Source: Stegostoma tigrinum (Eukaryota). From it: 64,000 nt of DNA. Made by a program: the position numbers and the translations under genes. The stretch lies in contig NC_081368.1 in NCBI RefSeq assembly GCF_030684315.1, positions 48,189,734 through 48,253,733 of the forward strand, read 5' to 3'. Positions 3,645-54,300 of the stretch are shown here, piece by piece. The notes under the pieces were generated by a model, which was not told the DNA's origin, did not search any database, and saw only the letters and a list, made by a program, of their open reading frames with translations. Numbering within the stretch: position 1 is the first letter of the stretch; every line of letters starts with the position of its first letter.

Positions 3645-3835
3645 TGGGAACAAAATCAGAAATTGCTGGAAAAACTCAGCAGGTCTGGCTGTATATGTGG
3701 AGAGAAAGCAGAATTAAAGATTCGAGATCAGTGACCAAGAAATGTTAACTCTACTTTCTCTCCACAGATGCTGCCAGACCTGCTGAGTTTTTCCCGCAAT
3801 TTCTGATTTCAGCTTCCACAGTTCTTTGGTTTTTT
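3645..3835. repeat. Inverted pair of Penelope-type terminal repeats (short foldback)
   Basis: cagaaattgctggaaaaactcagcaggtctggc...gtggagagaaag followed by its reverse complement ctttctctccacagatgctgccagacctgctgagtttttcccgcaatttctg. Confidence 0.75.
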
Positions 3836-4860: not shown

Positions 4861-5349
4861 CAGTGACACATGCCTTGTTAAGAGTAGGAAAGACGAAAAG
4901 TACTGAAAAGTAAAAAGGTTTTAACAGTAGAGCTTACAAAGCAGGGTCAAAATAGCTTTTTTTGAGGTTTCTCCTAGAGATTTTCTCAAGCACTACGTTT
5001 TGATTTTTGGGGCTATTATTTCATTTGCAACAACTCATTTAGGTGGCGATACAGTCATGTTTTAATATCCCTTATGTATGTGTTGACATATCGGGCATTT
5101 GGTGCAGATGTAGAATTTTTAAAAGTCCTCAACAGCCTAAATAATCGAATATCCATTAAACTTAAATCCACAACACTCAGGAAATCACTAACTTCTTACA
5201 CACTGCAGTACTTAAATTGGCACAAAGTAACAAGCATAAGTTAGCAACAGGAGTATTTTTCAAAATAACACTGATGTTTCTTGACACTTCTACACATAAA
5301 CCGATCACTCTAAACACCTTCCACAGGGGGCTGCAGCTAATCATACATG

Positions 5350-5445
5350 AGCAAGCGAGTTTTGGGAAGATTTGTAGCTCAGGTTAAGGTCTGGATGTGA
5401 GTTTGTTCGCTGAGCTGGAAGGTTAGTTTTCAGACGTTTCGTCAC
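5350..5445 (-). mobile_element. Penelope-like element, 3' terminal piece (split from 9821-10400 by the Tx1 insertion)
   Basis: Minus strand begins GTGACGAAACGTCTG, directly continuing the sequence interrupted at 9836. Confidence 0.8.
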
Positions 5446-5722
5446 TTTTTTTTAATTTGAAAAAATATACTTTATTCATAAGATGTACAAAAAATAAAAC
5501 ATATTTATACACCTACCCAGTCATGCAAGCCGCTCCAGGTTACCCAGGGGGTACATACATCAACTAAAGGGAAAAAAACAAACAAAAAAGGGAAAAAAAA
5601 GCAAAGAAAATACCCTGGCAGTTGTCACCCTGCACAGTCCCAGTTGGCCCCCTGACCAGCTGGGGAAGGCGCCAGCTGGGCCCAGGTACCAAATAGGGCC
5701 TTCTATTCTGGACGAGGGGGTT

Positions 5723-8156
5723 TCATACCGTGGTCTTGCCCCACCGCGCCCTGGCGGCAGCTGCCCCAAGCTTTAGCACGTCCCTCAGCACGTAGTCCTG
5801 GACCTTGGAGTGCGCCAGTCTGCAACATTCGGTCGGGGTCAGTTCTTTCAGCTGGCAGACCAGCAAGTTGCGGGCAGACCAAAGAGCGTCTTTCACTGCA
5901 TTGATGGTCCTCCAGGCGCAGTTGATGTTGGTCTCGGTGTGCGTCCCAGGAAACAGCCCGTAGAGCACGGAGTCCCGCGTCACGGAGCTGCTCGGGACAA
6001 ACCTCGACAAATACCACTGCATCCCCCTCCAGACCTCCTGCGCACAGGCACACTCCAGAACGAGGTGATCGACAGTCTCGTCCCCCCCCCCCCCCCCCGC
6101 AGCCACCTCGAGGGCAGCGTGCGGTGGCGCAGAGATTCCGGGCATGCACAAAGGATCTCACTGGCAGAGTCCCTCTCACCGCCAGCCAAGCAATGTCCTT
6201 GTGCTTGTTTGAAAGTTCTGGCGATGAGGCATTCTGCCAAACGACTTTGGCAGTCTGCGTGGGGAACAACACGACGGGATCCACCCTCTCCTTTTCCCGA
6301 AGGGTCCCGAGGATGCTACGTGCTGACCACTGCCTGACGGCCTTGTGGTCAAAAGTGTTTCTTTTCAAAAATTTCTCCACGAAGGACAGGTGGTACGGAA
6401 CGGTCCAACTACTCGGAGTGTTCCGCGGCAACGAGGCCAGGCCCATCCTTCGCAACACCGGGCACAAGTAGTGACACTTGGTGTTTGCGTACTGAGGATC
6501 TACGCACAGCTTGATGCAGCCGCACACAAAGGTAGCCGTCAGGGCGAGGGTGGCGTTCGGTACGCCCTTTCCCCCATTTTCCAGGTCTTTGTACATGGTG
6601 TCCCTGCAGACCCGGTCCATCCTCGACCCCCAAATGAAGTGGAAGATGGCCCGGGTGACTGCATCGGCGCAGGTCCAGGGAATAGGCCAGGGCTGCGCCA
6701 CATACAACAGTACCGAAAGCCCCTCGCACCTGACAACCAGATTCTTACCCGCGATGGAGAGGGACCGGAGCGTCCACCTGCCCAGCTGCTGCTTCAGTTT
6801 GGTGATACGCTCCTCCCAAGTCTTAGTTCATGCCCCAGCTCCACCAAACCAAACACCCAGCACCTTCAGTTAGTCTGTCCTGACAGTGAAGGGGATGAAG
6901 GAGCGGTCGTCCCAGTTCCCGAAGAACATGACCTCGCTCTTAACCCCTATTGACTTTGGCACCCGAGGCCAGTTCAAACTGGCCGCAGATGTCCAATAGT
7001 CTACTCACCGACCGACGATCGGTGCAGAAGACGGCGACATCGTCCATGTACAGGGAGGTCTTGACCAGAAGGCCTCCGCTGCCTGGGATAGTCACGCCCT
7101 TCAGGCTCACGTCCTTCCTGATGGATGCGGTGAAGGGCTCCACACAGCACACAAACAAGGCAGGAGAGAGCGGGCAGCCCTGCCTGACTCCAGATCTAAC
7201 AGGAAAACTGTCCGATTCCCACCTGTTGATCGAGACTGCGCTAACAATGTTGGCGTAGAGCAGCCGGATCCAATTGCGGATGCCATCCCCGAACCCCAAT
7301 TTGGAGAGGATGTCCCCCATGTAAGCATGAGAGACCCTGTCGAAGGCCTTCTCCTGGTCCAGGCTGACGAGGCAGGTGTCCACCCACCTGTCCTGTACGT
7401 AGGCGATCGTATCCCTGATGAGCGTGAGGCTCTCAGCGATCTTCCTGCCCGGCACAGCACAGGTTTGGCCAGGGTAAATCAGACTCCAGGACAGACCTGA
7501 CCCAGTTGGCTATGACCTTGGCCAGGATTTTGTAGTCCACGTTCAATAGTGAAATGCGACGCCAATTCTTAATTTCTTCCCTCTCCCCCTTCCTCTTGTA
7601 AATGAGGGTGATGATGCCCTTCCTCATGGACTTGCACATTTCCCCTGCCCGAAGCGCACTATCGTACACCTCCAGCAGGTCCTGGCCGACCAGGTCCCAC
7701 AGAGCGGAATACAGCTCGACTGGCAAGCCGTCACTCCCGGGAGTCCTAAACCTCTCCAAGGACTTGAGGGGTTCTGGTCAGCTCGTCCAGGGATATCGGC
7801 CGGTCCAGCCACTCCCTCGTGCCTTCGTCTAAGGCCTCCGTGATAGACAACAGGAACGACTCGGAGGTCGTGCTGTCCATGGGCTTAGTGTTGTACAGTC
7901 CGGCATAGAAGGATCTGCTGATCCTCAAAATGTCGGGCCGAGACGACGTCACCGAGCCATCATCCTCCTTCAGCCGGCTAAGCACAGAGCTCTCTTTGTG
8001 CACCTTCTGAAAGAAGAAACGTGAGCACGTCTCGTCCTGCCCCACGGAGTGGACCCTGGACCGGAAGATTATCCTGGAGGCCTCCGCGGCGAAAAGCGAG
8101 GCTTGCTGGCTCCTCACCTCACGGCGCATATTAGTGCTCGCAACTCGTACCCACAT
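5723..8156 (-). pseudogene. Tx1 ORF2 (reverse transcriptase), several frameshifts, endonuclease missing
   Basis: Starts MWVRVASTNMR at 8156; pieces in track ORFs 7746-8192, 7433-7759, 6940-7455, 5703-6707 and 5723-6151 join by frameshifts; includes PGSDGLPVELY, KNWRRISLLNVDYKILAK, YMDD. Confidence 0.9.
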
Positions 8157-9621
8157 TGTGGGCAGTGAGCGCAGTACCCTCCTCAAGTCCAAGGTCCAGC
8201 CCCTCCATCTGTCCCTTCATGCCCATTGCCCGGGCTAACTGCTGGACGCTCTCCGGGCTCAGGAAACCGTCCGTGCTGCCTTCCGGGGGGCAAGCCCCCG
8301 TCGGGGGTGCGGAGGCAGGAGGGTCCGGCTCTGGGTCAGGCTGGGGACGCGCTGTTTCCTCCTCCTTCCCACCTGGAAGTTCCGGGGGGCCCTCCAGTGC
8401 CCCAGCGGCACTTGACTGGATGTCGGAGGGAGCCTTAGGACGCCTCCCGTCACCTGGAAGCGTGGTGCTGCTTTCCTTCTCCCTGGAGACCTTTAACTTC
8501 TGCTTCGGGCGGGCCCTCTCCGAATCCCCCTCGTCAGAGGAGCTCTTATAGCCCCCCTGTAGCTGCCTCTTCCCGCCTGATGGTTGCGGTTCCCGGGCCC
8601 GTCGATGCACCTTGCTCCTCGCTTTCCAGACCGTCGTCCACTCCCCTGGGTCACTTGTCACCGCCTCCATCGACTCCGGGTTGTCGGGGGGGGGCGGGGG
8701 GGGAGGGGGGGGGGGCAGCGGAGCCTGCAGGGGCGCTTTGCTGGCCTCGGGCCCATCCTGCGGGGCTGGGCCCTCCTGCATGACCTGGCCCTCCTGCACA
8801 TTAGTGGGGTCCTTGCTGGGCCCTGGTGCCTTCCTCTCCTCCGGGGGGGCTGGCTCTGCATTGCCCCCGCCGGCGACCTGGGCATAGGTGATCCCCCGCT
8901 GCGGGCATGCCCTATAGAGGTGGCCCGCTTCCCCGCAAAGGTTGCAGCTTTTCTCTTGTGGGCAATCCTTTGCAAGGTGTCCCTCCTCCCTGCAGTTCCT
9001 GCAGATGGTGGCTTTGCAGTCGGCCGCCACGTGACCTGGCCTACCACAGGCATGGCAGACTTTAGGTTGCCCTGCATAGGTCAGGTAGCCCTTGCTCCCG
9101 CCGATCGCGAAGCTGGACGGTGGGTGTACGACGTTCCCGTCCACGCCCATCCTCAGCGTCACCTTGACCTGCCTCTTACTGGTCCAGATGCCAAAAGGGG
9201 TCCATGATGTCAGTTAGGTCCCCTTCCACCTTCACGTACCTTCCAAGGAAGGTCAGGACATAACTGCTGGCACATGCGGGTTGTACATGTGTACAGTCAC
9301 CATACGGCTCCTCTGCGCTGGCATCACAAACAGCGGGACAGCGGTCAATACAGAGAGGGGGCCCTCATCTCCTTTCTCCTTGAAAACCTCCAGGAAGCGC
9401 TCGCAAAGCTTGGCACTCCTGAAGGTCACATCATAAAAACCTCCTCCAGGGAAATCCTGCAGGCAGTAAATGTCCGCAGCAGCGAACCCGCAACAATCCA
9501 ACAGGACCCTCTTCATGAGGAAGGTGAGGTCCACAGGTGCACCTTCATCCACCTTCTTTACGGAAACACGGATGGTGTTCCGGACCCACTGACCTGGGGC
9601 ACGAGCACTTGCCACAGCCAT
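8131..9621 (-). pseudogene. Tx1 ORF1 (gag-like zinc-knuckle protein), one frameshift near 9260
   Basis: MAVASARAPGQWVRNTIRV...YDVTF then CHACGRPGHVAADC, CRNCREEGHLAKDC, CNLCGEAGHLYRAC and a Pro-rich tail; overlaps the ORF2 start. Confidence 0.85.
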
Positions 9622-9820
9622 CGTTGAAGGTTGGCTGCTCCCCTGAACCAGCGTTAGGCTGAAGCCAGCATTAAGATCCACTGGTCGCAAGGGCGCACGG
9701 TGAACCTGATGTCTTCCTTTCACCTCCAACACAGCACTCTCCTCCTCTCGGTCCACAAGAGGGTGGGTCTTTATTTTGTTCCGGATGTAAGCTGGTTCAC
9801 TGAGCTTGAAGGTTTGTTCC

Positions 9821-9859
9821 CAGATGTTTCGTCACCATTCTAGGTAACATCAACAGTGA
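9821..9859 (-). ncRNA. Minimal hammerhead ribozyme motif of the Penelope element (degenerate)
   Basis: Minus strand TCA-CTGTTGA-T-GTTACC-TAGAAT-GGTGAC-GAAAC-ATC-TG: CUGANGA box with one substitution, 6-bp stem II, GAAA box, NUH triplet. The 5431-5445 copy keeps GAAAC-GTC-TG(A). Confidence 0.7.
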
Positions 9860-10400
9860 GCCTCCGACGATGCGCTGGTGTTATGTCCCGCTTTCTATTT
9901 ATCTGGTTAGGTTTCCTTGGGTTGGTGATGTCATTTCCTGTTCTTTTTCTCACGGGATGGTAGATTGGCTCCAAATTAATGTGTTTGTTGATGGAGTTCC
10001 GGTTGGAATGCCATGCTTCTGGGAATTCTCGTGCGTGTCTCTGTTTGGCTTGTCCTAGGATGGATGTGTTGTCCCAATCAAAGTGGTGTCCTTCCTCATC
10101 TGTATGTAAGGATACGAGTGATAGTGGGTCATGATGTTTTGTGGCTAGTTGATGTTCGTGTATCCTGGTGGCTAGCTTTCTGCCTGTTTGTCCAATGTGG
10201 TGTTTGTCACAGTTCTTGCAAGGTATTTTGTAGATGACATTCGTTTTATTTGTTGTCTGTATAGGGTCTTTTGAGTTCATCAGCTGCTGTTTTAGTGTGT
10301 TGGTGGGTTTGTGGGCTACCCTGATGCCAAGAGGTCCGAGTAGTCTGGCAGTCATTTCGGAAACGTCTTTGATGTAGGGGAGAGTGGTTATGGTTTCTGG
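9821..10400 (-). mobile_element. Penelope-like element, 5'-truncated, GIY-YIG endonuclease region
   Basis: ORF 9840-10355: NVIYKIPCKNCDKHHIGQTGRKLATRIHEH (GIY-YIG, YIG degenerate to HIG) ... HFDW ... REFPEAWHS. Confidence 0.9.
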
Positions 10401-10660
10401 TTACATGAGCAAAGCTGGAAGATTTTAACCAGGCAGTTAGTACCTCCTTCCACTGCATCTCTGATCTTAATCTCAGGTTTAGTTTACTAACTGACATTGC
10501 TCACACAAACACTACAGTTTTCCCTCATCTGCAGCAATAAGCTAGAGATGCCACCTTCATTTTCAAGAAAAACATTATCACAGTAATTTCACATTTTCTT
10601 TGTATCAGTCATTGGGGTATGCTTTTACTAACACATATTAAATACTGCCCCTTCCTCCAT

Positions 10661-11199: not shown

Positions 11200-12590
11200 C
11201 TGAATCAGCAAAATGATGGCAGGGGGTCATCAACGCTGTGATCAATTTACTTAATCTGATCACTGAATTACAATCTGGGTTTTGCCAGCACCACTCAGCT
11301 TCTGATGTTATCACTGTATTAGTTGAACATGAACAAAGATCTGAACACAGAAGGGAGTGGAGAGTGACTACATTTGACATCAAGGCCACATTTGACTGAG
11401 TGTGGCATCAAGGATCCATCACAAAATTGGGCTCAGGGGGAATGGGGGGGGGGGGGGGAAAGAGAGAGAGAGAGAAAACCTCTTCCCTGGTTGGAGTCAT
11501 ATTTGGCATAAAGGAAGATGGCTGTAGATGTTGAAGATCAGTCTTCACAGTTCAAAGCTATCTCTGCAGATGTTCCTCGGGGTAGTGTCCTAGGCCCGGT
11601 AATCTCCAGCTATTTCATCATCAACAACCTTCCCTCCATCAAAACCTTCATGTCACCTCAGATACTGGAGTAGTACATGTCCAAATGCACCAGGTTCTGG
11701 GTGATGTCCAGGCTTGGACTGACAAAAGGAGAGTAAAATTCATGCTGTACTAATGCCAGGCAAAGACCTTCCCCAGAAGAGAGAATTGAACGATTTGAAT
11801 TTCAATGGCTTCATAAATCACTGAATTTCTAATATCAACATCCTGGGGGTCATCATTGACCAGAAATTGAACTGAATGTAGGAACAAATTATTACAGATG
11901 CTGGAATCTGTACTGAAAACAAAAAATGAAGAAAGTCATAGTGCGTCAGGCAGCATCCATGGAGTCAGAGCAAGCTAACACTTCAAGTCTAGATGACTCA
12001 AAACATTGGCTTGCTCTCTCTCTATGGATGCTGTCTGACATACTGCAATTTCAAACATTTTTTGTTTTCAGAAATTTAACTAAACTAGCTATTCAAATAC
12101 TGTGACAACAATAGCAGGTCAGACACTGGGAATCCTACCAATTCACCTACTGATGCCCAAAAGCCAATTCACTATCTATAAGGCACAAGTCAGGAGTGTA
12201 ATAGAATATTCCTCACTCTCCTGGATGAGTTCAGTTCAAACAACACTTGAGAAACTTGACACCAACCACCATAAGGCAGGTTGTTTCACTGGTATGACAT
12301 GCTCAAACATTCACTCCCTCCACCACCAACACTCAGTAGCATCAGTGTGAAACGTGTACAAGATGCACTGCAGACATTCAACATGGCTCCTTACACAGCA
12401 CCTTCCAAGTCCGTGACCACTATCTGGAACAGTATTATGGGTGAACCTACACCTCTGATGCCATTATGGATAAAGCTGCACCAAACAGGCTGCAGTGATT
12501 TAAGAAGACAGTTCACCATTTTTTCAGAGTTTCTAGAGATCAGTAATATTTGCTAGCCCAGCCAGTGAAGGTCACACCCTTGAACTAATT
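11200..12590 (+). mobile_element. Decayed CR1/L2-group LINE (RT to 3' end), interrupted by an inverted PLE repeat at about 11880-12070
   Basis: Degenerate D-I-K-A-x-F-D and V-P-x-G-S-V-L-G-P motifs; IYKAQVRSVIEYS in ORF 12102-12350; related fragments near 15740-16260, 35180-35610, 40220-41330, 50040-50330, 61780-62510. Confidence 0.7.
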
Positions 12591-12949: not shown

Positions 12950-14790
12950 ACCTGCAAATGCTGGAAATTGGGAATATAAAATTAACATGATGGAAATGCT
13001 CGAGATAACAAAGTGTAGAGCTGAATGAACAGAGCAGGCCAAGCAGCATCTTAGGAGCATAAAAGCTGACATTTCAGGCTTAGACCCTTCATCAGAAGAG
13101 GGGGAGGGGGACAGGGTTCTGAAATATATAGGGACAGAGCGGAAGACAGATCGAAGATGGATTGAGGAGAGGATAGGTGGAGAGGAGACAGACAAGTTAA
13201 AGGGGCGGGGATGGAGCCAGTAAAGGTGAGTGTAGGTGGGGAGGTAGGGAAGGGATAGGTCAGTCCGGGGAGGATGGACAGGTCAAGGGTTAGGGGATGA
13301 GGTTAGTAGGAAGGAAATGGGGGTGCAGTTTGAGGTGGGAAGAAGGGGATAGGTGAGAGGAAGGGGCGAGCTCGGATTGTAGATGGCGGAAGTGTCGGAG
13401 GATGATGTGTTGTATCCGGAGGTTGGTGGGGTGGTACGTGAGGATGAGGGGGTTTCTCTTTTGGTGGTTATTGCGGGGTTGGGGTGTGAGGGATGAGTTG
13501 CAGGAAATGCAGGAGACGTGGTCGAGGGCTTTCTCGATCACTGCGGGGGGAAGGAGAGGGGAAGAGTTGCGGCCCTTGAAAAACGAGGATATCTGAGATG
13601 TACGGGAGTAGAATGCCTCATCTTGGGAGCAGATGCAGCAGAGGCGAAGGAATTGGGAATAGGGGATGGCATTTTTGCAGCAAGGTGGGTGGGAGGTGGT
13701 GTATTCTAGGTAGCTGTGGGAGTCAGTGGGCTTAAAATGGATATCGGTTTTTAGGCGGTTGCCTGCGATGGAGACAGAGAGGTCCAGGAATGTGAGGGAG
13801 GTGTTAGAGATAGTCCAGGTGAACTTGAGGTTGGGGTGGAAGGTGTTAGTGAAGTGGATGAACTGTTCAAGCTCCTCAGGGGAGCACGAGGCGGCGCCAA
13901 TACAGTAATCAATGTAACGGAGGAAGAGGTGGGGTTTTAGGGCCAGTGTAGGTACGGAACAGGGATTGTTCCACATAACCTAAAAAGAGGCAGGCACACT
14001 TTGGACCGATGCGGGTACCCATGGCCACCCCTTTGTCTGTAGGAAGTGGGAGGAATCGAAAGAGAAGTTGTTGAGGGTGAGGACAAGTTCGGCTAGGCGG
14101 ATGAGGGTGTCAGTGGAGGGGGAGTGGTCGGGCCTGCGGGACAGGAAGAAGCGGAGGGCCTTTAGGTCATCTGCATGGGGAATGCAGGTGTATAGGGACT
14201 GGACATCTATAATAAAAATGAGGTGTTGGGGACCAGGGAATTGGAAGTTCTGGAGGGTGTGGGTGGTGTCACAGACGTAGGTAGGAAGTTCCTGGACCAA
14301 GGGGGAGAAAATGGAGTCCAGATAGGTGGAGATGAGTTCGATGGGGCAGGAGCAGGCAGACACAGTGGGATGATCAGGACAGGCAGGTTTGTGGATTTTG
14401 GGAAGGAGATAGAAGTGGGTTGTGCGGGGTTGGGGAGCAATGAGGTTGGAGGTGGTGGGTGGGAGGTCACCAGAGGTGATGAGGTTGTGGATGGTTTGGG
14501 AGATGATGGTTTTGTGCTTGGGGGTGGGGTCATGTCCAGGGGGCAGGTGGTAGGAGGTGGTGTCGGAGAGTTGGCGTCTGGCCTCAGCGGCATACTACAA
14601 CTGTGCCTCCCTTGTCCGTAGCGTTTTATGGTGAGGTTGGGATTGGAGTGGAGGGCTGCACATTCTGCCGGGGGGGGGGGGGGGGGGGGGGGGGGGGAAC
14701 AGGGGAAGAGGTTGGTGTGGGCGAGGGGGGTGGAGAGGTTGAGGCGATTGATGTCTCGACGGCAGTTGGAGATGAAGAGGTCGAGGGAGG
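12950..14790 (-). mobile_element. Penelope-like element with RT and thumb region, GIY-YIG deleted
   Basis: DVQSLYTCIPH, LVLTLNNFSF, LFLRYID, TDIHFKPTDSHSYLEY in ORFs 13980-14363 and 13290-13976; 3' terminal repeat with CTGATGA...GAAA motif at 13066-13095. Confidence 0.9.
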
Positions 14791-40489: not shown

Positions 40490-40716
40490 TAAAAACCAAA
40501 AGAACTGTAGATGCTGTAAATCAGGAACAAAAACAAAGTTGCTGGAATAGCTTAGCAGGTCTGGCAACATCTGTGGAGGAGAAAACAGAGTTAATGTTTC
40601 GGGTCCAGTGACCCTTCCTTCTGAGGAAGAGTCACCGGACCCGAAACATTAACTCTGTTTTCTCCTCCACAGATGCTGCCGGACCTGCTGAACTTTTTCA
40701 GCGACTTTGCTTTTAC
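40490..40716. repeat. Inverted pair of Penelope terminal repeats with opposed hammerhead motifs
   Basis: About 90-bp arms mirrored around 40620: ...acagagttaatgtttcgggtccagtgacccttcct|tctgaggaagagtcaccggacccgaaacattaactctgt... Confidence 0.85.
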
Positions 40717-52704: not shown

Positions 52705-54300
52705 CTTTTTATTTCAAAAATATACTGTATTCATAAGAATATCTTTAGTCACAAAAACAGTTTGACTCTGTACAGTAGCATATGAAGAAGCAAACAAATG
52801 TTATTGGTTGACTTTATCCAACAAACAAACCAAAGGCATTCCTTACTTGCACAACCCTTTTATTTACATGTATCTGAGCCATTGGTAGGGTGTGGTAGTT
52901 GTTTGAAAACAGAGTGGACCCCAGTTTAATTTTGGCAGAAAGACTTTAAATGGTTGTCTTTCCTCGCAGTGCCTTGGCAACTGCTGCCGCAAGCTTTAAT
53001 ACGTACTTCAGCACACAGTCCTGAGCTTTTGAATGCGTCAGTCTGTAACACTCAATGTCAACTCAGTGCTCTGGAAGATGAGCAGGTTTCCGACAGACTA
53101 AAGAGTGTCTGTCTTTCACTGAGTTGATGGTCCTCCAGGCACAGTTGATGTTTATCTCGGCATGTGTCCTTGGGAACATCACAGTAAAGCAGAGTGCCTC
53201 AACAAAACCCACTGCATCTGTCTAGACTGTGAAGGCACATTCCACCAGATGATGTGTGACAGTTGTATCAGTCCACTCTTCAGTGATGGTGCAGTGTGTC
53301 TGGGCATACATGAAGGATGTCACAGGTAGTGCACTTCTCTAGGTGCTTGCTAGAAAGTTCTGGCCATGAGGCATTCTACCACTTGACTACAACAGTCTGC
53401 TCAGGGAACAACCCAACAAGGTCTACCCTGTGTTTTTCTTGTAGAGTCTTGAGGATGCTTCATGCTTGCCGCTTCCTGATGGACTAGTGAGCAGAGGTTT
53501 TTTTCTCCACCTAAGAGGACGTAATATGGAGTGGGCCAACTACTCTGAGCATTCCACGGCAGAGACTAGACCATTGTTTGTAACACCAGGGCCAAGTAGA
53601 ACCTCAGTACAAAGTGACGCTTGGTGCTTGCATACCAAGGATCTGAAAAGAGCTACACACAAAGGTAGCTATCTGGATGAGGGCAATGTTGGATATGTTC
53701 TTCCCCACTTTATCTAGAGTTTTGTAAATGGTGTCCCTGTGGACATGGTTCATCTTAGTCCTCCAAATGAAGTGGAAGATGGTTTGGATGACTGCAATGG
53801 TGCTATCCAGCTTAGGTGACATGAGAGAGCTGCTGGGAACCAACAGTGTGCGTTTACTTTTACATAACTTTTTTAAACATTTTGAAGGCAATCACATATG
53901 TAGGGCTAAAGGAATGCAGAACTTGGGAGTTTAACATGTTTGGAAGTGCAGGCACTATTTTGAAGGGAACAGTGGCAATCAACTTGTGCATGTGTTCATT
54001 CTGCCATGATCAACAACTTCTTTTTGATCAATATCAAAAGGACACAGGAGTGAAATCTGACGTTCTTTAAAATAACCTAAGGGGACAGGTAGGTCTTATT
54101 CGCAACTGAGTGGGCACTCTATGGAGGAGAGGTGATGATTGGTGAGCTGGCATTCCGAAGTGCTAGCATGGGCTGGATCTGTATGCAGATGCAGTTTTAA
54201 GTTGACCTACAGCTTTGCTAGGTAGAAATGGTGTGAGTGAGATGGCAAAATTGAAGTTAGTACTTGTAGGTGGGCAGTGAGAAATACTGGACATTATGGT
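52705..54300 (-). mobile_element. Older decayed Tx1-like L1 fragment (ORF2 C-terminal part and 3' end)
   Basis: TIFHFIWRTKMNHVHRDTIYKTLDKVGKNISN parallels AIFHFIWGSRMDRVCRDTMYKDLENGGKGVPN of the 5446-9820 element; similar terminus aaaaatatact(g)tattcataaga next to a T-run. Confidence 0.82.

Follow-up and report, generated by a model that had tools for sequence, protein, structure and literature searches.

A Tx1 retrotransposon family of Stegostoma tigrinum targets the hammerhead of a Penelope-like element and probably carries a core-mutated copy of it in its RNA

Several retrotransposon families of the Tx1 clade are known to target DNA transposons and long terminal repeat (LTR) elements (PMC4494074, PMC4640811). 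Xenopus Tx1 resides in the piggyBac element Tx1D, crocodilian Tx1-Mar in Mariner-N4, Tx1-8_Crp and Tx1-4_AMi in LTR elements, and Tx1-9_AMi in Harbingers (PMC4494074). Some R2 elements carry upstream 28S sequence in their RNA, and an earwig R2 holds a 22-bp copy of its downstream target with 3 substitutions (PMC3774820). Penelope-like elements (PLEs), in turn, encode minimal hammerheads described as weak and inactive as monomers in vitro, dimer-dependent motifs in which ACGU self-pairing is conserved (PMC4209133). Here and below, these and the other papers are cited for the sections consulted. We analysed a window of 64,000 nucleotides of Stegostoma tigrinum (NC_081368.1, positions 48,189,734 to 48,253,733), in which a Tx1 element lies inside the minimal hammerhead of a PLE. 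An earlier note on this DNA had proposed that the Tx1 family targets PLE hammerheads, that it carries a leader captured from a former target, and that host read-through followed by ribozyme cleavage defines the 5' end of its RNA. The ideas on targeting and leader hold; the ribozyme idea runs the opposite way. The best explanation of our data is probably a site-targeted Tx1 whose RNA extends upstream and contains an uncut, core-mutated hammerhead, which would anneal to the target for 5' joining.

The 20-mer at the Tx1 3' end has 2,877 exact matches in the genome. The strict target motif GTGAYRAAAY lies within 6-20 nt of 2,115 of these 3' ends, compared with none for reversed-pattern controls. 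All 30 of the best-matching 3' ends, the window copy included, abut the target, and all 29 copies picked via a stretch of open reading frame (ORF) 2 are on target. An unselected sample comprised 80 of the first 82 listed 3'-end places in position order, of which four belonged to an older subfamily and 76 were kept. Of these 76, 74 sit at the site, 1 of which is placed 5 nt upstream; another lacks the first 8 nt of the site, and the last (L222) lies off target and has a 16-nt duplication. The insertion point in stem II, noticed at a single locus, is thereby confirmed family-wide, and the family almost certainly targets this one site. Sixty of the 76 copies (79%) are full length at the 5' end, 18 of which are short through the internal deletions common in this family, and nine of the 76 lie inside the leader of another Tx1. 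A tails measure 7-10 nt in 102 of 113 copies and exactly 8 nt in 60, while the 3' junction starts with GG in 53 and with G in 60 of the 113.

The element shows the hallmarks of the Tx1 clade, namely an ORF1 with CCHC knuckles and ZCCHC3-type domains, an ORF2 with an apurinic/apyrimidinic (AP)-like endonuclease, a reverse transcriptase (RT) and a C-terminal zinc domain, an A-rich tail and target-site duplications (TSDs). One near-intact natural copy (L172) has stop-free frames for both ORFs, its ORF2 of 1,159 aa matching PF03372, PF00078 and PF13966. Judged pairwise and not from a reference tree, the best ORF2 matches are amphibian (45-48%), and the 'transposon TX1 149 kDa protein' is 37% identical; human L1 ORF2 matches only with an E of 1e-4, over the N-terminal 279 aa. 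In sum, the Tx1 family is genuine, high-copy and sequence-specific, and its kind of target is new.

We number the target such that +1 is the G of GTGAC, which puts the predicted cleavage (GUC) after +13. The site has the features of a PLE minimal hammerhead, i.e., CUGANGA and GAAA boxes, stems I and II, a palindromic 15.2-16.2 segment and a position at the end of the PLE ORF. In the fold, consisting of a 3-bp stem I, a 6-bp stem II and the ACGU palindrome, each pair is base-paired in 92-100% of 179 copies. An Rfam search returned no hammerhead match at the window locus, and single-strand folding gave no significant structure (z -1.26, -1.26 and -0.07). The stem II motif has 18,586 exact matches in the genome; with matched patterns, 1,401 sites are filled by Tx1 versus 11,959 that are empty, so that a full-length Tx1 interrupts roughly every tenth site. 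Contigs of other organisms (runs X2, X3 and X5) contain the same PLE hammerhead with a changed loop II and with stems and core kept, and one of these also differs at the variable N7 position. By contig mapping, the PLE is present in three other organisms and the 5' part of the targeted Tx1 is essentially uncovered; contigs of organism B thinly cover the Tx1 3' junction, too short to count, and metagenome contigs scanned for the Tx1/target 3' junction gave 0 matches. PLE copies often form head-to-head pairs 74-1,800 nt apart that have subfamily markers in common (L108/L109, L124/L125 and a set of 55 pairs), and about 11 such pairs with Tx1 in both arms occur among 100 listed 3'-end places.

The 5' junction was evaluated by hand in the first 100 listed filled and the first 100 listed empty sites, and in 109 fetched full-length junctions compared with 70 empty sites. 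The diverged leader was present at 30 of 30 5' ends. On a Tx1 tree of 70 copies (6 of the 76 were dropped for deletions or inserts in the slices, and CpG columns were removed), leader position +54 changes once, compared with 13.0 changes in shuffles, which upholds the idea that the element itself carries the leader. By contrast, the first 15 nt of the 5' copy, previously read as a plain TSD, are not one in full-length copies, and their G>A difference is a Tx1-borne allele. This A at +11 (G16.2A) is found in 76 of 100 junctions versus 7 of 100 empty sites (p 5e-25), and T at -18 (A6U) in 47 versus 1 (p 4e-16). In the larger set, Tx1 letters occupy +16 in 103 junctions and no empty site, +11 in 84 and 7, and -18 in 52 and 2, corresponding to ~95%, 77% and 48% of junctions. 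Where both ends of a locus were available (64 scored, 10 unscorable), 42 loci had A at +11 in the 5' copy and G in the 3' copy, compared with 3 loci with the opposite arrangement. A further variant, TGATT instead of GAAAC (+6 to +10), was counted at 114 sites; of these, 12 were fetched, and every one continues into Tx1. Altogether, Tx1-specific alleles extend from -18 to +55. The remaining differences from -45 to -1 are CpG sites, common to T and A junctions.

These three lesions, A6U, G16.2A and loss of the GAAA box, all fall in the hammerhead core. At least one of them is present in 96 of the 109 junctions versus 8 of the 70 empty sites, and the core is intact in 5 versus 41; part of the latter gap is age, and Tx1-flanking sequence shows more CpG decay. 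Thus, a rebuilt motif of hammerhead shape does stand directly upstream of nearly all full-length copies, as had been noticed in the window, but it is seldom intact. Likewise, the CUGUUGA core is present there, yet it is a recurrent Tx1-linked allele and not the local decay it was taken for. We also observed that CpG decay upstream of full-length junctions (-39, -34 and -31) is strand-biased, unlike at empty sites, with C>T at -39 in 30 of 109 and G>A at -38 in ~5. At another locus (L084:5760-7075), a stack of three Tx1 copies, two of which are truncated, occupies a single site, and a TGATT-type duplication of 15-16 nt, the same in each case, flanks every copy.

The head-to-head pairs bear on the origin of -18T. 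Both arms have the same subfamily marker in 40 of 47 scorable pairs. Twelve pairs combine a Tx1 arm that has T with a sister arm that is empty, and there the empty arm reads A in 10, T in 1 and is deleted in 1. Because the sister arms are mostly A although the arms mostly share a subfamily, the targets did not already have T at -18 before insertion. A at -18 is also what the truncated copies at the site show where PLE sequence lies upstream (3 of 3). Since the Tx1-specific alleles at -18, +6 to +10 and +11 all lie 5' of the GUC site, the copied RNA appears to have been uncut, and with an allele at -18 and cleavage after +13 it would have reached at least 31 nt upstream of the cleavage site. 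From these sequence comparisons, we consider it very probable that the Tx1 RNA extends upstream of the cleavage site and is uncut when copied. Neither upstream-target duplications nor clustered short upstream arms revealed the RNA start.

We propose that Tx1 RNA starts upstream in PLE sequence and brings along an uncut, core-mutated copy of the hammerhead. The AP-like endonuclease would nick the bottom strand at GAAT^G^GTGAC (-1/0), and the top strand would be cut ~15-16 nt downstream of this nick. A full-length cDNA could then anneal to the target through homology of at least -18 to +55 and overwrite it to a variable distance, forming the 5' junction. Each insertion would rebuild a usable target in its own leader, giving rise to tandem arrays. 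The leader beyond +15 would rarely be corrected and would drift, which would produce the switch from identical to diverged sequence. This switch had been considered a mark of the ribozyme; +15/16 equals the duplication length of truncated copies, and a second-strand cut is more likely. The core changes may persist because self-cleavage would remove the homology arm, so that source copies with a weakened ribozyme would be favoured.

Could the site preference instead be a passenger effect, with one Tx1 insertion in a PLE amplified as a composite by the PLE reverse transcriptase and Tx1 itself unspecific? The high share of full-length copies and their uniform tails would fit, as would the finding that every close relative flanked by ordinary duplications is truncated and lies off target. 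Furthermore, the head-to-head pair L228/L229 is 98.7% identical, and in 14 of the 76 copies, which have PLE-like inverted or deleted 5' ends, the 5' junction and the duplication are both missing; here, composites may have been moved or duplicated, and internal deletions may explain most of the 14. However, four truncated copies (L068, two in L084, and L176) duplicate 15-16 nt of their own site including private target variants (an AAC insertion in L068, TGATT in L084), and Tx1 inserts in tandem into its own leaders. Neither three PLE flank markers (p 0.20, 0.09 and 0.10) nor the G/GG junction (24 changes versus 23.6 in shuffles; p 0.65) cluster on the Tx1 tree, and two arms of one PLE pair carry different leader types. 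Upstream PLE arms match those of empty sites in length (medians 375, 333 and 337 nt) even after 5.3 kb of Tx1, and 7 of 8 head-to-head Tx1 pairs show 91-95% identity, which lies inside the range for randomly chosen pairs (median 92.8%). Duplication of their own target by truncated copies, tandem arrays and flanks unlinked to the Tx1 tree thus argue for repeated targeted insertion. That passenger copying made the family is very unlikely, whereas some composite copying may have occurred and may account for a minority of copies. A different objection concerns the alleles, which would say nothing about the RNA if the endonuclease preferred PLE copies that already have T at -18. A few empty sites do carry this T, but the sister arms and the three truncated copies with A speak against such a preference, T is found on all PLE subfamily backgrounds, and it would leave unexplained +11A and TGATT, neither of which is shared by the 3' copy of the locus; we give this objection hardly any credence. 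The same alleles bear on the original proposal that PLE read-through and hammerhead cleavage at GUC free the 5' end of the Tx1 RNA. The motif upstream of nearly all full-length copies agrees with it, A6 and CGTC are kept in 16 of 100 listed junctions, and R2 uses a ribozyme in this way (PMC3774820). Yet the Tx1-borne alleles are 2 to 31 nt on the 5' side of the cleavage site, where a cleaved RNA could not deliver them, and the junctions mostly bear core lesions. The allele data would seem to refute this release model largely, and we now think it most improbable.

With targeted insertion from an uncut upstream RNA as the preferred reading, it remains to be weighed whether the core changes are a selected disarming of the ribozyme. 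Changes at A6 cost 10-100-fold and those at G12 or A15.1 more than 100-fold in activity (PMC4075628), a natural A6C hammerhead variant is slow (PMC3088659), and G16.2A abolishes ACGU self-pairing. As -18T accompanies all four leader types and changes 17 times on the tree although the targets are 99% A, T-bearing copies seem to have been favoured as sources. Alternatively, targeting and upstream RNA may be real and the ribozyme irrelevant, the core changes being neutral alleles of a few long-lived master copies or having a role for a promoter or upstream ATGs. Several points weigh in that direction. The +11 lesion is at a CpG, and 23 of 102 3' copies have A at this position as well. On the tree, -18T shows weak clustering (17 changes versus 21.7, p 0.03), and the youngest clade, as defined by the +54 marker, has it less often (4 T of 15). 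This pattern also fits neutral decay from a small number of master copies, which might produce much the same picture. Moreover, 13 of the 109 junctions have none of the three lesions on which the case for selection against cleavage rests, and the pressure to disable PLE hammerheads may be small, given their low activity in vitro (PMC4209133). As read from the sequence, the -18 change also removes one of three in-frame upstream ATGs. In contrast, all three Tx1 changes within -45 to +15 that symmetric CpG decay does not account for are core positions, with stems I and II unchanged. With transfer only partial each time a copy inserts, a T without selective advantage should become diluted by targets that are nearly all A, which is not what the leader types show. 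We consider the neutral account unlikely and lean somewhat towards a selected disarming. We also considered a split hammerhead, in which Tx1 acts as a giant loop II and a long-range ribozyme cuts just past its 3' end; A6U would impair this as well.

The targeted family has an older sister subfamily in the same genome. Of the 30 copies closest to a single diverged 3' end, 28 lie off target, with 5' truncation to <1.5 kb, and most of these have duplications of 10-19 nt (by eye). Thirteen 3' sites separate the two groups: 25 of 31 off-target copies have mostly old alleles, whereas none of 75 on-target copies has more than 3. Divergence is 7.5% in the old group versus 4.9% in the targeted family. 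Members of the older subfamily (L241-L270, e.g., L242, L259, L262 and L268) lie off target, are truncated without exception and share 92-95% identity with the targeted family across much of ORF2; a few mix old and new alleles. When longer old copies were sought, all matches belonged to the targeted family, and none of the old copies retrieved extended into the endonuclease. Target specificity likely arose recently; it is only likely because resemblance to a single old copy defined the older sample, none of whose members reaches the endonuclease. L169 was rejected as a second hammerhead-targeting family, as its 28 off-target relatives have unrelated flanks. More tentatively, and somewhat short of an even chance, we picture the whole history as follows: a long interspersed nuclear element (LINE) recently became specific for a PLE ribozyme and captured it as its 5' end, selection broke the core three separate times, and the uncut arm now drives homology-directed, mostly full-length insertion that overwrites the host ribozyme.

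On the minus strand of the window, the end of the PLE ORF with the 5' half of the hammerhead is followed by the 55-nt leader, the Tx1 body with its A8 tail (9780-5446) and the PLE 3' piece. The 5' piece of the truncated PLE (9836-10399) encodes the C-terminal part of a GIY-YIG-type ORF, as judged from homologues, which comprise GIY-YIG domain proteins and RT-bearing proteins; the nearest named ones are from carpet sharks (78-91% identity). Pfam and NCBIfam profiles gave no match to this ORF piece. The 5' half of the hammerhead (9836-9859) contains stem I, the CUGANGA box, the 5' strand of stem II and loop II, with the Tx1-linked A6U at 9853. The hammerhead at 9840-9856 overlaps the final codons of the PLE ORF, whose stop codon (TAG, 9842-9840) opens loop II; Tx1 thus inserts 5 nt past the stop, and the PLE ORF stays whole. 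The leader (9781-9835), by sequence comparison a captured copy, now diverged, of what lies downstream of the target, has G16.2A at 9825 and the predicted cleavage position after 9823. Compared with 5391-5445, it differs at 1 of the first 15 and at 9 of the next 40 positions, exactly as reported before. Downstream lie ORF1 (8131-9621), frameshifted, with two ZCCHC3-type RNA-binding domains and CCHC knuckles as seen from domain matches and the copy L172, the ORF2 remnant (5723-8124) with RT and zf-RVT, recognised by domain matches and comparison with other copies, and the 3' untranslated region (5446-5722) ending in the 8-nt A tail (5453-5446); all are on the minus strand, like the pieces before and after them. 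About 980 nt including the AP-like endonuclease are deleted at 8124 and there are frameshifts besides; this Tx1 copy is dead. The PLE 3' piece (5356-5445) starts with the GTGAC target copy and contains the 3' half of the hammerhead and the PLE tail. An 11-bp TSD of the host PLE, read directly from the sequence as TACATGAGCAA at 10402-10412 and again as the same 11-mer at 5344-5354, encloses both pieces. Removal of Tx1 therefore rejoins one 5'-truncated PLE insertion (10399-9836 plus 5445-5356), as the earlier note had it.

Elsewhere in the window, a second abundant repeat contains hammerhead-like motifs (CUGANGA...GAAA..UC) at 13095 and 28039 (minus strand), near which PLE-type RT fragments lie at 13290-14594. 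A distant Tx1-like RT fragment, 66% identical to L172, is found at 52952-53796. Long hairpins at 3653-3809, 11913-12071 and 40567-40676 are inverted pairs of a common short repeat, with weak Rfam miRNA matches below the gathering score.

In vitro, the minimal hammerheads of PLEs cleave hardly at all (PMC4209133), and they are not proven to act in cells. A parasite that repeatedly loses exactly the core bases would, if our reading is true, be indirect evidence that these ribozymes cut in cells. The family further offers a natural example of a LINE of the AP endonuclease (APE) type in which 5' target homology goes along with 79% full-length insertion, a property wanted for retrotransposon-based gene insertion, and its off-target sister subfamily provides a way to study the origin of sequence specificity. 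If specificity is indeed recent and the ribozyme was captured and broken, both the birth of target specificity and the in vivo activity of PLE hammerheads become testable.

Compared with the metazoan PLE minimal hammerheads (PMC4209133), the motif is the same in being type I without helix III, with an extra nucleotide before stem II, a G10.1-C11.1 pair, the palindromic 15.2-16.2 segment and opposite-strand pairs 100-700 bp apart; it differs in that about a tenth of its sites carry a full-length Tx1. Our full-text literature search found no Tx1 targeting a PLE or a hammerhead, although Repbase entries, subscription papers or the supplements of PMC4494074 could record one. A PLE target is absent from the passages of PMC4494074 examined, where 'penelope' occurs 0 times in the paper, and the parts consulted of a 2026 preprint on PLE-derived retrozymes (10.64898/2026.07.22.740005) leave Tx1 unmentioned. 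With the transposon-targeting Tx1 elements, the family shares the two-ORF APE/RT architecture and a fixed site in a high-copy mobile element, and tandem insertion is also known for the Tx1-related SINEU-3 (PMC4494074). Unlike theirs, its target is a Penelope-like retroelement, inside a ribozyme and just past a stop codon. Keno, specific for U2 small nuclear RNA, is likewise a Tx1-clade element aimed at a conserved structural RNA sequence, there a host RNA gene and here the ribozyme of another retroelement (PMC4494074, PMC4640811). The likeness to R2 lies in uniform 5' junctions formed through a cDNA-target heteroduplex, a captured, diverged copy of the downstream target and variants propagated through the RNA (PMC3774820); uniform 5' junctions and RNA-borne target variants were both found here. 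An R2-like ribozyme-processed co-transcript, by contrast, seems improbable, with so few intact cores and element alleles upstream of the cleavage site. R2 uses a restriction-like endonuclease and derives its 5' end from its own active, hepatitis delta virus-like ribozyme (PMC3774820), whereas here an APE element appears to have taken the hammerhead of its host element, mutated in the core, with conversion extending at least 18 nt into the target.

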